A DNA stretch of 64,000 nt from an uncultured Planctomycetaceae bacterium (GTDB taxonomy: Bacteria > Planctomycetota > Planctomycetia > Pirellulales > Pirellulaceae): NCBI GenBank assembly GCA_963803365.1, contig CAWDMH010000011.1, forward strand, positions 198,539 through 262,538, in the 5' to 3' direction. Below are positions 41,171 through 63,050 of this stretch, in pieces. How positions within the stretch are numbered: the first letter of the stretch is position 1; every line of letters starts with the position of its first letter. Both the position numbers and the translations under genes were made by a program. A model generated the notes under the pieces. That model was not told the DNA's origin, did no database searches, and saw only the letters and a program-made list of their open reading frames with translations.

Positions 41171-44100
41171 ATGTCACGACCTGTTGTTTCCAGCAAGAAC
41201 TGGCGATATCGGCGACAAGCGAAACCGGCTGGCCGCGGGCCCGCGATCGTCATGCTGATTCTTATCGGACTGTTGGTGACCTGGTTCGTTTTGTCCTTGT
41301 GGAAGGCGCCGCGAGCGGCGCCTTTCGTCCGCGTCCTTTGTGTCGAACGGTACACGAACGAACCGCAGTTGCCGTTTTTGAAGAACGACCTGGACGCGCT
41401 GGCTTCGGCATTCTCGGTGGCCGTGGATCAATCCCAAAAAGGCGTCTCGCCATCAGCCGGTGTCGGCAGCTTTGATATCCACAGTCAAATCTCAGAGACC
41501 ACTTTGGTTGATTTCGCGCCGTACCTGAGTCAGTTCAACAACGCCAAATCCAAAGACATCGCAATTCTTTACATTGCCGCCCAAGGCGTGGCGATTGACG
41601 AGAAGCCGTATTTGTTGGGCACGCCTCGCAACTGATTGATTTGCGGCGATCATGTCCGGTGGAGGGAATTCTGCAGCAAGTGCACAATCTCCCGGCCAAG
41701 ACCAAGCTCATCCTGTTAGACGCGGGCAACATCCAAACGGCGCTGCGGGCCGGGATGCCCATCAACCAGTTCGTCTTCCGCCTGCACGAACAGGTCAAGG
41801 CGCTCGACGACGAGAATCTGTGGGTGATTTGTTCGAATTCGATGGGCGAAGTCTCGAACGCCTCACTCGCCAAGAAACGCTCGATCTTTTCTTGGGCGCT
41901 GGTCGACGCGTTTGGCAAACTTAAGCGAGATACCCCGTCGGGACCGATCAGTCTCTACGATTTCTACGACTTCGTCTTGCGGCATTGCACGACCGCCACG
42001 AAAACCAGCGGCGGGGCGCTCCAAGTCCCGCTGCTGATGCGAGGCAAGACGGGCGTGATCCTCGATTTGCAATTGACGGATTCACTGAAGGAAACACTGA
42101 AGAAGCAAGTCGTTTTCTACCGCGACAAGGTCAAGATCGTGCAACCGGAAAAGCCCGCAGCGGCAGACGGCGCCGCAAAGAAAACCGCGTTCCTTCCACG
42201 CATGCTTCGACTAGAGTCTTTGACCGCGACCGTCATGGCGCCAAGTTTTGCCTGGACCGGGAGCCCGGCGCTCGAAAGCGGGGGATCGTCACCGCAGGAC
42301 CCGGATCGCGCGTCAACACAGCCATCGGAGAAGCCCGCCGCGTCGCCGGCCGCCTCAGCACCTCAGCAACCAGAACCGGCGCCGTCGTCAGCCGGAGATG
42401 GCGCGCAGGAGAAAACGGCGCAGACAAACCCGTATGTCGAGATCCTCAAGAGCCTGGACGAAAACCCGACGAGTCTGGACCAGGCGCTGTGGCAGAATTG
42501 GCAGCTCGTCGATTTACTTCAAAATCGTGAACGGTTTCTCTGGAGCCCCGTAGATTTCTCGCCCAATGTTTGGCGCATGTTGTTGGAAAGCCTGGTTGAA
42601 ACCGATCAGCAAGCCCGGTACGGCTGCCTGGGCGACAGCGATGGCGCGATGACGAGGATGCGGCAAATCAAGACGCAACTCCGATTGTTGCTCGACAGCA
42701 TGGAGGGAAATCGACCGATCGACAAATCGGCGATAACCGATACCAAACGCTTGGAAGACAGGCTGTTGGCCGCGTGGAATGGATTCGTACCGGCGGTCGA
42801 CGACGTCAATCGCCAATTGGCCCCATTGACGGCGGATCAAAAACAGATCGCCAGCAATTGCCTCACGTACGAATGCAAATTTCGAGATCGCGTGTTCCGC
42901 GCGGGTCAATACGTGCACTGGTTTGCCTTCGACAGCCGGATCGATCCGACCGGCGCCGTTTCGCCGATAGATCGTCTGTTGAATCAGATCCGCATGGAAA
43001 ATCGGACGGATGTCTATGCGAAACCGAACATCAAGTTGATCGCCGCGGCGGCCAATGAAATGGTCGAGTCCGACCGTCGACTGCGCAGCGCGGAGGAGCA
43101 GGTGTTTGAATTCTTTCTGAAACAACTGGATTTTGCGGTGGCGTCAAATCGCGACAATTTTGAACGGCAAGAGTTGCTCAATGGTTTGTTGCGGTTGACG
43201 GTGTTGCGGCCGGAGACTTCGCTTTTTCCGAGCGGAGACCGAGACAAACGGCTCAACCGAAAGCACATCCTGGAGACTCTCAATGACGCCATCAACCGCC
43301 AGAATCCAGATTTCAACCTCATCGAACAGAACTGGCCAAGCCGAATCATCTCCAACCAGGGCATCTCGGCTGCGACGAGCCAGTTTCAATTGGTTGCCGA
43401 GTTAGCCGGGTTGGCTGACACAACCCCGGCTCACGACAATCTCGCCATTCAACCGCTGACCGATGACGATCGACAGTCGGACGAAATGTTGCAGCAATGC
43501 AGCCAAGTGGGCGCGGCGCTCAGCGATCGATTGAAACAGTTCGACTTGGAAACGACTCCATCCGGTAGCGTGTGGCTGCAAGCGTCGCTCGGCGATTCAT
43601 ACGATCTACGCATTGGTTTGCAATTGGTGGACGCAAGCTACGCAGCCAACCTGCCGAAACTCGTGCCGGAAGAAGTCCTTGAACGAATCCGGTTTGACGA
43701 GCTCCCGATCGAGGTCAATCTCGACGGCGAGAGCAGCGCTACATTTACGGTGTACGTCGAAGGCGACAAGCGGAGCGCCCTTCCGATTCGAGTTCAAATG
43801 AGTGAGGCGGATCAGGCGAAAATCATCTGCCAGACATTGGAGGGACAACCCGCCGACTTGTTATCGGTCCCCGTCCGCGACGGGCGTGCCATATTTGACC
43901 TGAAGTTTATCGCCAGACAGACCAGCAACTCAGACGAGGACTTTGCCACCGTCGAATTGTCGGTCGATCAAATGCCTGAAAAGAAGCGGTCGGTGCGAAT
44001 CAGCCTCCCGCGCCCCGATTCGATCTGGTTGCTTGCAAAACAACAGTATTGGCTAAAGAACCCCAACGACTATCACTTGTCCGATCAAATCGACCCGAAT

Positions 44101-46017
44101 CAGTCGGCACTCGCCATGAAGTTGCTACCGTTTTCCAACTTTGACAGCTCCTTCAAGTTTGACTTGGAAAACCATTCTGGTCGAACGAAAAAAATCGTTG
44201 CCGAGTTTTATGCGGTGCAATTGGTGAAGCAACTTCGTCCCTCGTTTTTCGACTCGTTTCCGCCGGGGCGAAATTCGAAATCGGGAAAAGTTGATGCGGA
44301 GTTGCGGAAAGCGTTGGAGCAGGCCGTCATCGACGGACAATTGACCCCATTTTTCACCGCCCCGGAAATCGAGTTGACGCCGGCGGGTCAAACCGACTCG
44401 CGCAAGTCGATCTCGTTCAAACCGGCGCCGCCTCCCGCCGAACCGAAAGATGGAGCCGCTCAGCCGCCAGCCCCACCTCCCAACGCCGAATTCGATCTCA
44501 ATCACGGCTTCATCGTTCATGCCATCGTCGATGACGCGGGGATCAAAACGAATCGCTTTTATTGGATCGAATTTTCGCGCGTCACGAGCGATCGGCTCGT
44601 GACGGGAGATCCGAAGGGAACGTTTGACAAGAACGATGGTACGTTTCGGCTTCCGCTATCGGCCAACGTCGACGTCTTCGATTTCCGGCAAAAGATTCCG
44701 CTCAAATGTGAAGCGGCGGCGCCGTACGCGACACCCAGTCCGCGATGGGTGGCAGATCCTCCCAGTGTTCTCAACGGCGAAATCACGGTTCAAGTCCCCG
44801 AGGAAGCGATACGGACGATCAACGACACCAATGACGTTTTCGCCAATCAGATTTGTATCTCGGTCAACGATGAGCCACGCTGCTTCGTCTTTCTGATCAG
44901 TCCGCGCGACTTGGGGACCGAACGAGGCAACGTGCGGCCCGGATTAACCCAGGTTCGAGTCACCGGCGTCACCGGGATCGACGCCGATGGAAAGCCGATG
45001 CCCGGCATTCCCATGGGAGACCAATGGGTGTTTCGATCATCGCCGAGTATGCATGCAACGATCGCAGCCGATTGGCCATTCATCACAGAAAACGAAAGTG
45101 AACTGCTGCTTTCGGTGCAGAGGCCAAAAACGAGCCGCGCGGTTCCAGAACCGACACGATTCACCGATCGGCAAGTCCGATATATGGGGCACATTGCCGA
45201 TGGTGAGTTTCTGATCCAGGCCCATGTCTCCGATCACGTCCTCGACGTTGATACGGTGGGTGAAGGAGCATTCGAAATCCAGGCTGGCATGAAGATCGGC
45301 GAAGTTGTCGCAACCGGGGCCAACGCGGGTGCTCGACAAACGGTCATCTTCGATCAAACTCCGCCCACCGGGGATTTATTATTTTCCGATTTGACGACCG
45401 TGTCTTCGGCCTACGTCAACTCGGACGTCCGATTTCGCGTCGACGCTCAAGATGAGTTGACCCAAGTCACACGCGTACAGTTGGTTCGAGACACGCAACC
45501 CAACGGCAAAGTTGATGCCGAGGACAAACCCGTTCCCAAGCCATTCGAACTCCAAAATGGTGTCTGGGGACTCGAACTCAAATTCACCGAGCCCACCGCC
45601 GACGCAATGCATTTTTTTGCGACCGCCGAGGACACCGCGGGCAACTCCGCGAGTTTTGGCCCAGTCCAATTAGTCGTCGAAGCGGCCCCGACCAAACCCG
45701 CCGATGGCTCGCCCGGCACGAAGCCCACGCCGCCGGCAAAAAAGTACCGAGTTGTCGTGAACGTCGCGCTTGTATCAAAGCCTTTAGACAGCGATGCCAC
45801 CCTGGACACCATCGAACTCACGGGTTCGGGCGTCAAAGGAGTCCGGTCGGATGCCCGCGTCGGGTTCGACGGCGTCGTCGCCGGCACCTACAAGCTCGTG
45901 CTCAAAGGGTACTCGGCCACCCGCAAAAAAATCGCTGCGGAAAAAGAGATCATCATCACCGACAATGGAGAAAAGGGCGACAAGACTTTCTCCGTCAAAA
46001 TGGACTATGAAAAGTAA
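41171..46017 (+). CDS. membrane-anchored giant protein (~1600 aa) with an N-terminal caspase-like (peptidase C14 fold) domain that lacks both catalytic residues; frame break near 41625
   Basis: The TM segment is IVMLILIGLLVTWFVLSLW. The C14-like motifs are VRVLCVERYTNEPQLPFLKNDLDALASAF, DIAILYIAAQGVAIDEKPYLLGTP and TKLILLDAGNIQ, with SIFSWALVDAF...ISLYDFYDFV...QVPLL after them. The first two are in ORF 41126..41635 and the rest in ORF 41641..46017. The C-terminal segment YRVVVNVALV...GTYKLVLKG is CarboxypepD_reg-like. Confidence 0.7.
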
Positions 46018-61128: not shown

Positions 61129-61699
61129 GAAAGACTCCGGCGGCACGGCAGTTCAATGGGGCAATGCCCGTTGGGTCAGCGAGGTAGGTCGAATCGACGT
61201 GAGGCGTCGATGCACGTTGCAGAGGCGAATCCGGGTCCGATTCCACATTGGGTCGACTCTAGTTGCGTTATCGCGCAACCCCACATGAACCGGGTGGGCA
61301 TGGGGAAGTGCATTATAGTTGGGGACTCATCGGCTTCAACGGCAGCCCAGCGGTCACCGCCAACCGTTCTTTCTCGACCGAGGTTGGTATCGGAAAACAC
61401 ACACCCGTTGGCGATTTGAACATCGTCCGATTGTTGGATGCACTGACGGCAGGTCCAACGATAAAATCGAGAGTTTTGCCGAGTCCTGACCTGGTCCGCA
61501 ACCCTGTTCGACAATGTCGCACAACACAAATTCCGTGTCGCTCGTTGTCGTCATTCGAAGATTTCAACTAATCTTAATAGGCCCACACAACATCCCTTTA
61601 AGCGTCCTCGCATCAGAGGTAGGTGTTCACGGGTTGCTAATGCGCCGCCCACGTTTTCAGGGGGTCAGGCACATTTTCGGCGGCTCATGCGACATTCAA

Positions 61700-61928
61700 G
61701 TGCTTTGTCAAGTCTTAGAATTGGGGTTGTGTGCCACTGGCTTCGCCAGTGCGGGTCGGCAATAGGATCGCACGCAAAATAACTTCGCCCCTAATTCCTC
61801 GCCCTTACGGGAGAGGTTAAGGAGAGGGTCGACAAAACCGGGAAGTTATTTTGCGTGCGATCCATACACGACGCTCATTTACAATGGCACAGCCAATGGC
61901 ACCCCAAGATTAAGTACTGAAAGTGCAC
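61700..61928. mobile_element. MITE family D, copy D5, inserted into E4 at a TA and itself interrupted by B5
   Basis: An uninterrupted E reads acattcTAgta. Here it reads acattcAA[gtgctttgtcaag...aaagtgcac]TAgta. Confidence 0.85.
61765..61863. mobile_element. MITE family B, copy B5, inserted into D5 with an ATA target duplication
   Basis: An uninterrupted D reads ggcaatacacgac. Here it reads ggcaATA[ggatcgcacg...gtgcgatcc]ATAcacgac. Confidence 0.9.
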
Positions 61929-62012
61929 TAGTATCAATATTGGGCCGAAAATGAGCCAGACCCCGGCTCGTGAACAGTTACCATCAGAGGATCAGAGAAT
62001 AGCCTTGCCGAA

Positions 62013-63050
62013 ATGAACGTGGTCCACGAACCCTCATCGATTCCCAAATCGGACAACCGGACAGACAAAACCAGTCGGCCCCTCGCCAGCATTTCGCTGG
62101 ACTTGGACGACAAGTGGACTTATCTCAAGACCCACGGCGACCCGTGGGAAGCGTTTCCGAGTTATCTAGAGCTCGTCGTGCCTCGGATTCTCGAATTCCT
62201 CGAGAAATCCACGCTCCGGATCACGTTTTTTATCGTGGGCCAAGACGCCGAATTCGCTCGGCATCACGCCACGCTGCAGTCCATCGCCGACGCGGGGCAC
62301 GAAGTCGGCAACCACTCGTTTCGCCACGAGCCCTGGCTGCACGATTACACGCAGCAAGAAGTCCAACAAGAGATCGAACGCGCCGAAGAGGCAATACAGT
62401 CGGCCACCGGACAGCGGCCCATTGGTTTTCGAGGACCCGGTTTCAGCATGTCACAAACCGTCTTGCAGATCCTCAGCGATCGCGGCTATCGATACGACGC
62501 ATCGACGTTCCCCACGTTTTTGGGTCCGGCGGCCCGAGCCTATTACTTTTTGAAGTCCCGACTCACCGGACAACAAAGGAAACAACGCCGGGCGCTGTTT
62601 GGCCGTCTGCGCGACGGCCTGCAATCGAACCGGCCTTTCCTGTGGAACACACGGAATCCGTTAGTCGAAATCCCGGTGACGACGATGCCGTTCGTGAAGC
62701 TGCCGATGCACATGAGTTATCTCAACTATCTCTCGGCGTACAGTCGCATCGCCGCCAAACTCTATGCGTGGAAGTCGCAAACTCTGTGTCGACTTGTGTC
62801 GTTGGGCCCGTCGCTGCTGCTACACCCGCTGGATTTCTTGGGACCCGAGGACGAGAGCGACTTGTCGTTCTTTCCCGGCATGAACCTTTCCGCCGCTAAG
62901 AAAATCGATCTGTTGATCGGCGTGGTTCGTTCGATGCGAAAGTCGTTCGACCTGGTGACGATGGCACAACAAGCTAGCCGCCTCGCCACAGGTCGGCTTC
63001 GCCTTCGAAATCTAAACACGGCCCTACCCGGCCGCCCAATAGCGCGTTGA
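62013..63050 (+). CDS. polysaccharide deacetylase (NodB-homology / CE4) family protein
   Basis: ISLDLDDKW...LRITFFIVGQDAEF...IADAGHEVGNHSFRHEPW...GQRPIGFRGPGFS fits the family. The ORF is intact. Confidence 0.8.
   Translation: MNVVHEPSSIPKSDNRTDKTSRPLASISLDLDDKWTYLKTHGDPWEAFPSYLELVVPRILEFLEKSTLRITFFIVGQDAEFARHHATLQSIADAGHEVGNHSFRHEPWLHDYTQQEVQQEIERAEEAIQSATGQRPIGFRGPGFSMSQTVLQILSDRGYRYDASTFPTFLGPAARAYYFLKSRLTGQQRKQRRALFGRLRDGLQSNRPFLWNTRNPLVEIPVTTMPFVKLPMHMSYLNYLSAYSRIAAKLYAWKSQTLCRLVSLGPSLLLHPLDFLGPEDESDLSFFPGMNLSAAKKIDLLIGVVRSMRKSFDLVTMAQQASRLATGRLRLRNLNTALPGRPIAR

Follow-up and report, generated by a model that had tools for sequence, protein, structure and literature searches.

Known bacterial MITEs include Nezha and other cyanobacterial MITEs, the NEMIS/Correia elements, RUP and ERIC/YPAL. 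IS630 inserts at CTAG and duplicates TA; the IS1031/IS427-type members of the IS5 family produce 3-bp TNA duplications, and the eukaryotic PIF/Harbinger elements produce TWA duplications. Nested ('Russian doll') insertions are recognised in the annotation of prokaryotic transposable elements (PMC3852290), and the ISBst12 group of the IS66 family has single-ORF members (ISBst12 and ISDge4) with GTAAC.. ends (PMC12898284). Here we analyse a three-level nest of short repeats, from families designated E, D and B, in an uncultured Pirellulaceae lineage. Like the bacterial MITEs named above, the three are non-coding elements of 99–133 bp with inverted ends and family-specific duplications, which occur in hundreds of copies between genes and insert into one another. 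Unlike those MITEs, the three families were undescribed, and the B end is essentially confined to one species. They are new families of a known phenomenon and reveal no new kind of mobile element and no new mechanism; the nesting is real and cleanly legible, yet it is an ordinary event in a genome with about 800 such elements. What the analysis adds is a putative tie between E and an IS66-like element, the finding that nests are common and occur in several orders, and a distribution of B and E that looks like a lineage-specific burst.

Anatomy and setting of the nest

The window, meaning the whole 64,000-nucleotide stretch that was analysed (C11:198539-262538), belongs to a 330-kb contig of a draft assembly that comprises 5.08 Mb in 34 contigs and is rated 73% complete. 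The composite and its parts lie in the window as follows.

61611-61990: composite of E, D and B, about 380 bp, with the nesting legible base for base
61611..61619, no strand: left duplication of E, CATCAGAGG; its final G is possibly the first base of E, and the 9-mer is repeated at 61982-61990
61620-61981, + strand: whole span of E4 including its inserts; restored E matches uninterrupted copies
61620..61697, + strand: left arm of E4, to ..ACATTC; nhmmer model positions 1-84, family end GTAAGCGTTCACGGG
61698..61699, no strand: AA, degenerate left copy of the TA duplication of D; CTA directly before D is expected from the four parallel D-in-E sites
61700-61928, + strand: whole span of D5, GTGC...GCAC; family D, 127 bp without its insert
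61700..61761, + strand: left arm of D5; subfamily with the right end ..TACTGAAAGTGCAC
61762..61764, no strand: ATA, left duplication of B5 and also D sequence; preceded by ..GGCA (uninterrupted D reads GGCAATACACG at this site, with one ATA, in 58/80 copies)
61765..61863, + strand: MITE B5, GGATC...GATCC; family of 98-99 bp, 100% self match, about 300 full copies; terminal inverted repeats of ~22-24 bp, GGATCGCACGCAAAATAACTTCG, with a single long hairpin fold
61864..61866, no strand: ATA, right duplication of B5; from the sequence and the single ATA of uninterrupted D
61867..61928, + strand: right arm of D5, ending ..GAAAGTGCAC; family D matches
61929..61930, no strand: TA, right duplication of D (the TA of E's CTAG); from D flanks and from empty and filled E sites
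61931..61981, + strand: right arm of E4, ending ..CGTGAACAGTTAC; family E alignment
61982..61990, no strand: right duplication of E, CATCAGAGG, read from the sequence
62013..63050, + strand: polysaccharide deacetylase (CE4-type) gene; Pfam Polysacc_deac_1, E = 1e-23

The first-pass annotation had read this stretch as B inside D inside E, with a duplication around each element, and we confirmed every coordinate of that arrangement: the same 9-mer stands on both sides of E4, D5 has AA on its left and TA on its right, and B5 has ATA on both sides. Its claim that removing each insert together with one copy of the duplication restores the host was also borne out. D without B5 and one ATA is 127 bp long and 90–97% identical to 45 near-full uninterrupted copies, and the restored E likewise matches its uninterrupted copies. 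The locus is a clean teaching example, in which the insertion order and the transposase footprints (9, 2 and 3 bp) can be read from 380 bp.

The composite lies in a polysaccharide-synthesis locus, within an 866-bp intergenic region between a Wzz/GumC-like gene and the divergently oriented CE4 deacetylase gene. The deacetylase ATG is 22 bp downstream, a position from which the composite may influence expression of that gene; a scan for consensus promoters and terminators found none inside the composite. The sole ORF that touches it is an 83-aa frame (61514..61765), which starts outside and crosses the E–D junction into D. B, D and E had no match in Rfam. An orthologous empty site was sought in same-genus genomes, where the flank could be aligned only in its coding part, at 67–73% identity. 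Elsewhere in the window, a 1.94-kb segment at 43705-45645 (C11:242243-244183) is 97.5% identical to C34:50394-52327 and may represent either a gene duplication or a mobile element.

We counted loci of each family with blastn and nhmmer against the whole assembly, merging strands.

Family B: 391 loci, 313 full, 98-99 bp
Family E: 312 loci, 241 full, 133 bp
Family D: 130 loci, 80 full, 127 bp

Together the families amount to about 800–830 loci and about 87 kb, dispersed across the contigs; near-duplicate ends on a few contigs make these figures slightly too high. Genome-wide, each family proved to be independent of the others and to have flanks of its own kind, as the first-pass annotation had proposed to check. 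All three are short and non-coding, and all have terminal inverted repeats, a duplication of fixed length and a high, dispersed copy number. Hairpin folding exceeded that of shuffled controls in every family (z = -8.4 for B, and -3.1 and -4.2 for the other two). About 800 MITE copies, many of them beside or within genes, have to be masked when this genome is annotated. End overlaps of 4–11 kb at 95–99% identity join contigs C14/C30, C14/C17, C17/C8/C31, C18/C32 and C3/C32, a sign of either strain heterogeneity or duplications that the draft has not resolved.

Target duplications and empty sites

We examined the flanks of each family across its copies. E ends in GTAAGCGTTCACG paired with CGTGAAC(A/T)GTTAC and also occurs as a subfamily with a deletion of about 100 bp. 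Its two flanks agreed in a 9-bp register, with at most one mismatch, in 149 of the 241 full copies (110 of them exactly), compared with 0.7 under shuffled pairing. An 8-bp register was seen in 16–18 copies (~7%) and a 10-bp register in none. The duplicated 9-mers vary from copy to copy, which is the behaviour expected of a true target duplication. The E consensus begins GTAAGCG, and the first G of E4 is either absent or identical with the last G of the left CATCAGAGG; should that G belong to E4, the duplication at this locus is possibly 8 bp rather than 9.

Among 300 copies of B, the flanks read TAA/TAA in 78 and TTA/TTA in 77, with only about 10 mixed pairs, and the two flanks were identical in 175 of 313 copies, where shuffled pairing gave 82. 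On both sides the bases are T (86–88%), A or T (46/46%) and A (88–89%), so that about 90% of copies carry T-(A/T)-A. Since the middle base co-varies between the two sides, 3 bp are duplicated. Family B thus resembles the IS5 family and Harbinger-like elements in its 3-bp TNA/TWA duplication. The ATA of B5 departs from the TAA/TTA rule and was used by 1 of 313 copies, another point of difference from those systems. At the insertion point of B5, 58 of the 80 full D copies read GGGTCGGCAATACACGACG and have ATA once, so the two ATAs around B5 are a duplication.

The ends of D are GTGCTTTGTCAGG with ..CTGAAAGTGCAC, or with ..CTTGACACGGCAC in a second subfamily. Of 45 copies, 29 had CTA before the element and TAG after it; C was present at −3 in 100%, TA in 89–93% and G at +3 in 93%. 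Because this flank is invariant, flank statistics on their own (56 identical pairs against 55.6 after shuffling) cannot separate a duplicated TA from CTA and TAG as parts of the element. The empty sites can. At the position where D inserts, CTAG is the commonest reading in uninterrupted E (73 of 197 copies with the region; others read CACG, CAAG or CTGG), and the filled sites (n = 5) have the sequence TTCTA–D–TAGTACC, mutated at no more than one base per site. One CTAG in empty E against two around D indicates that D duplicated TA, and D's own ends (G... ...C) regenerate CTAG at both junctions. This agreement of a TA duplication with a preference for CTAG, one site becoming two, is that of IS630/Tc1-mariner MITEs. 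Several D copies directly abut another GTGCTTTGT.. element. The pairs of empty and filled sites that the first-pass annotation had called for were therefore obtained for both internal insertions.

Candidate transposase sources

We searched for the 30-bp ends of each family outside the known MITE loci. For E, this gave three identical orphan ends leading into a 1596-bp repeat, with full copies at C8:740855-742450 and C8:737788-739382 that are 98.3% identical, lie in the same orientation 1.47 kb apart and are accompanied by a fragment at C3:1267601-1267731. The ends of the repeat, GTAACCGTTCACGGG(T/G), and those of E, GTAAGCGTTCACGGGT, are identical at 14 of 15 terminal bases (through ..CACGGG), and similarity between the two is limited to the terminal 15–16 bases. 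Both full copies are flanked by 9-bp duplications, GCCAGCACT and ACTGCCCGA. One copy has an intact 493-aa ORF, which is broken in the other; the ORF matches the Pfam domains DDE_Tnp_IS66 (PF03050, 1.9e-30), zf-IS66 (PF13005, 3e-6) and DUF6444.

Judged by its sequence, the 1596-bp element corresponds to a single-ORF member of the IS66 family of the ISBst12-like kind with GTAAC ends. It resembles the ISBst12 group in having one ORF, about 490 aa long, that carries DDE_Tnp_IS66 and zf-IS66 domains; its ends open with GTAAC, against GTAAG in E, so that GTAA is common to E and a single-ORF DDE_Tnp_IS66 element. Unlike the IS66 family, in which 8 bp are typical, both IS copies and most E copies have duplications of 9 bp, the modal length for E. 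The 9-bp stagger is a variant within the IS66 family and, as that family usually duplicates 8 bp, its presence in both the IS and E forms an additional specific link. These resemblances strongly suggest that the 1596-bp element is the autonomous partner that mobilises E, and the proposal of the first-pass annotation that an IS making 9-bp duplications lies behind E has found its candidate. The pairing of a MITE of about 300 copies with a single-ORF IS66-type element would offer a testable handle on a poorly characterised group of transposases. Beyond this genome, E gave weak partial matches in congeners and was absent from 36 more distant relatives.

For D, the first-pass annotation had suggested an IS630/Tc1-like source. 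The CTAG target and the TA duplication agree with this, but we found no autonomous partner, and D differs from IS630 systems in that no transposase gene bearing D-like ends was found. The sole DDE_3 (PF13358) gene of the assembly, on C27, has unrelated ends (AAATCACCGTGCG). Around five DDE_3 loci of three same-genus genomes there were no paired D-like ends; a weak D-like end at one congener locus (L063) was set aside as it had no matching second end. A public scan of metagenome contigs returned two matches to the D end, with no autonomous partner found at either: full examination placed the first in an unrelated, transposase-free context, and a check of the second for another D-type end found none. 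Three congeners, and one genome from another family, have copies of D at 72–81% identity, and D is older and more widespread than B and E. D contains two internal palindromes, at positions 28-54 and 79-107 and of the type GCCACTGGC-loop-GCCAGTGGC. Both are found without D ends, at 93–100% identity, in four distant Pirellulales genomes, G013, G015, G016 and G035 (loci L053-L056), and they may represent a widespread hairpin motif that is independent of D.

The suggestion of an IS5-group source for B fared similarly: the 3-bp T-W-A flank statistics support it, but an autonomous partner, and with it the transposase that IS5/Harbinger systems possess, was not found. No B end lay within 2.5 kb of the 16 DDE_Tnp_1 (PF01609) loci; among other IS5-type domains, PF13359 (DDE_Tnp_4) had no match in the assembly and PF13586 had one weak match. 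In public genome contigs, the B end was found only in TAA/TTA-flanked MITEs of 82–100 bp or as a solo end, in other Pirellulales MAGs, and a public scan of metagenome contigs gave no match. The end occurs 616 times in this genome; two same-genus genomes have none, and of 148 other genomes sampled from the family two have it, with a single occurrence apiece. B's 22–24-bp end (GGATCGCACGCAAAATAACTTC) is also found in at least three further short repeat families, around unrelated interiors (for example at C3:1216861, C3:898216 and C3:13953). An end common to different interiors is the pattern expected if a single transposase recognises it, which suggests that one transposase serves a superfamily of MITEs with B-type ends. 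Three same-orientation B-type ends at C3:201146, 201211 and 201276, spaced by exactly 65 bp, may be a tandem array of half-elements.

Inverted ends paired 300–6000 bp apart, taken as possible autonomous partners, enclosed ordinary genes in all candidates, and none of 13 repeated 1–2-kb elements identified by self-megablast had ends resembling B or D. No autonomous partner of B or D was thus found in the 73%-complete assembly, in relatives or in the public contig scans.

Order of insertion, rival readings and the wider genome

Successive entry of E, of D into E and of B into D very probably accounts for the locus. E (133 bp, non-coding, with the ends of an ISBst12-like IS) would have entered intergenic DNA and duplicated 9 bp, possibly 8. 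D (127 bp, with IS630/Tc1-type behaviour) would then have entered E's CTAG and duplicated TA, the left copy of which would later have mutated to AA. B (99 bp, hairpin-like) would finally have entered D and duplicated ATA, its family duplication (3 bp, usually TAA/TTA) being of the kind made by IS5-family or Harbinger-type transposases. The elements would have reached the locus one at a time, each of them non-autonomous and dependent for its movement on a transposase supplied in trans and specific for its terminal inverted repeats. The first-pass annotation had inferred three transposition chemistries from the footprints. Three transposases with different staggered cuts are indeed indicated, and this is the better wording, since the putative transposase of E is a DDE enzyme and the flanks of B and D likewise point to families of the DDE type.

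The sequence E, D, B applies to this locus and does not rank the families by age: the genome has about 16 other nests, with several orders of host and insert. E lies inside B at three to four loci, once in the end of B with the duplication GGTAAGGAT, and B in E, B in B, D in B and E in E also occur, as do several inserts from other families. A four-deep nest at C24:53759-54291 has E (duplication CCCACCGCC) in X, X in B, and D in the CTAG of E; family X is about 155 bp long, and about 50 uninterrupted matches at 69–75% identity span the point where E inserted. These varied orders imply that E→D→B is a local history and that the activity periods of the families overlapped. Identity to the family consensus is 93.2% for E4, 96.1% for D5 and 94.9% for B5; dating by consensus divergence was rejected, because such short elements from such subdivided families give no usable order.

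We considered whether the composite, or a part of it (E+D or D+B), is itself the transposing unit, so that the nesting formed elsewhere and was copied here and the local order does not record events at this locus. We regard this as improbable. E+D occurs at five loci with D at the same position of E, the other four being C13:25600, C24:53904, C3:947991 and C3:1159358; C13:25600 and C24:53904 agree in D subfamily and orientation; and the 226-bp D+B and 362-bp E+D+B units keep intact outer ends and could be mobilised. Yet the five loci involve two D subfamilies, both orientations and a separate 9-bp duplication for each E, which makes at least four of the five independent. No D–B or B–D junction in the arrangement of the composite exists elsewhere in the assembly, nor does a second copy of D+B or E+D+B, and a 380-bp query matched end to end at the locus itself only. 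The three-level composite is unique, and the case that the first-pass annotation had named as fatal to nesting, a composite repeated as a unit, was not seen. Copying is also unneeded to explain five D-in-E events, which are not far above the 2.5 expected under uniform CTAG targeting (P = 0.11); their recurrence follows from the CTAG specificity of D. On the same figures, and with CTAG five-fold depleted genome-wide, we rejected a privileged role of E's CTAG as a landing site for D.

That a short-read assembler threaded three abundant repeats into a chimeric nest is very improbable, even though the draft has 34 contigs, is 73% complete and has near-duplicate contig ends. Every junction coincides exactly with the terminus of an element and shows the duplication length of its family (9, 2 or 3 bp), and removing each insert restores the host consensus; a mis-join in the assembly graph is expected inside shared k-mers rather than at element termini. 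The nest lies on a contig of 330 kb, and the roughly 16 other nests follow the same rules. We give still less credence to REP/REPIN-like or structured palindromes spread by a tyrosine (RAYT/IS200-IS605-type) transposase or by recombination. REP families have been reported in Planctomycetes (PMC3733652), all three families form hairpins better than shuffled sequence does, and D's internal palindromes are found in distant Pirellulales independently of D ends. REP/REPIN elements are, however, palindromes tagged with GTAG or CGTC and lack a target duplication (PMC3733652). Here no GTAG or CGTC tag stands at the element ends. IS200/IS605-type movement makes no target duplication, whereas each family here has its own, shown by 9-mers that differ between E copies, by a middle base that co-varies in the flanks of B and by one CTAG against two for D; moreover, the ends of E are shared with a DDE element of the IS66 family. 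Chance agreement of the flanks is unlikely in view of the excess over shuffled pairs for both E (149/241 against 0.7) and B (175/313 against 82). We therefore retain stepwise nesting as the reading of the locus.

On a wider scale, we tentatively raise the possibility of a recent, species-specific burst of several unrelated MITE families in this Pirellulaceae lineage. Consistent with a burst, B, D and E contribute about 830 loci and about 87 kb, to which the ~155-bp family X and at least three further families with B's ends are added; the B end and E are virtually absent from same-genus genomes; and the families insert into one another up to four deep. If such a burst took place, this genome would be among the most MITE-dense of planctomycetes and would let a family of about 300 MITE copies be studied in nature together with the single-ORF IS66 element, of 9-bp stagger, that drives it.

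The genome holds other features beside these families. CTAG occurs at 0.20 of its expected frequency genome-wide (3920 sites), and TTAA, TAA and TTA occur at about 0.47 of expectation. A repeat of about 1957 bp, with at least nine copies that are 98–99.8% identical (for example C11:31291-33247) and ends unlike those of B, D and E, is probably an active insertion sequence. A further repeat of about 1470 bp, with ends GGTGCCATCCA, has at least seven copies.
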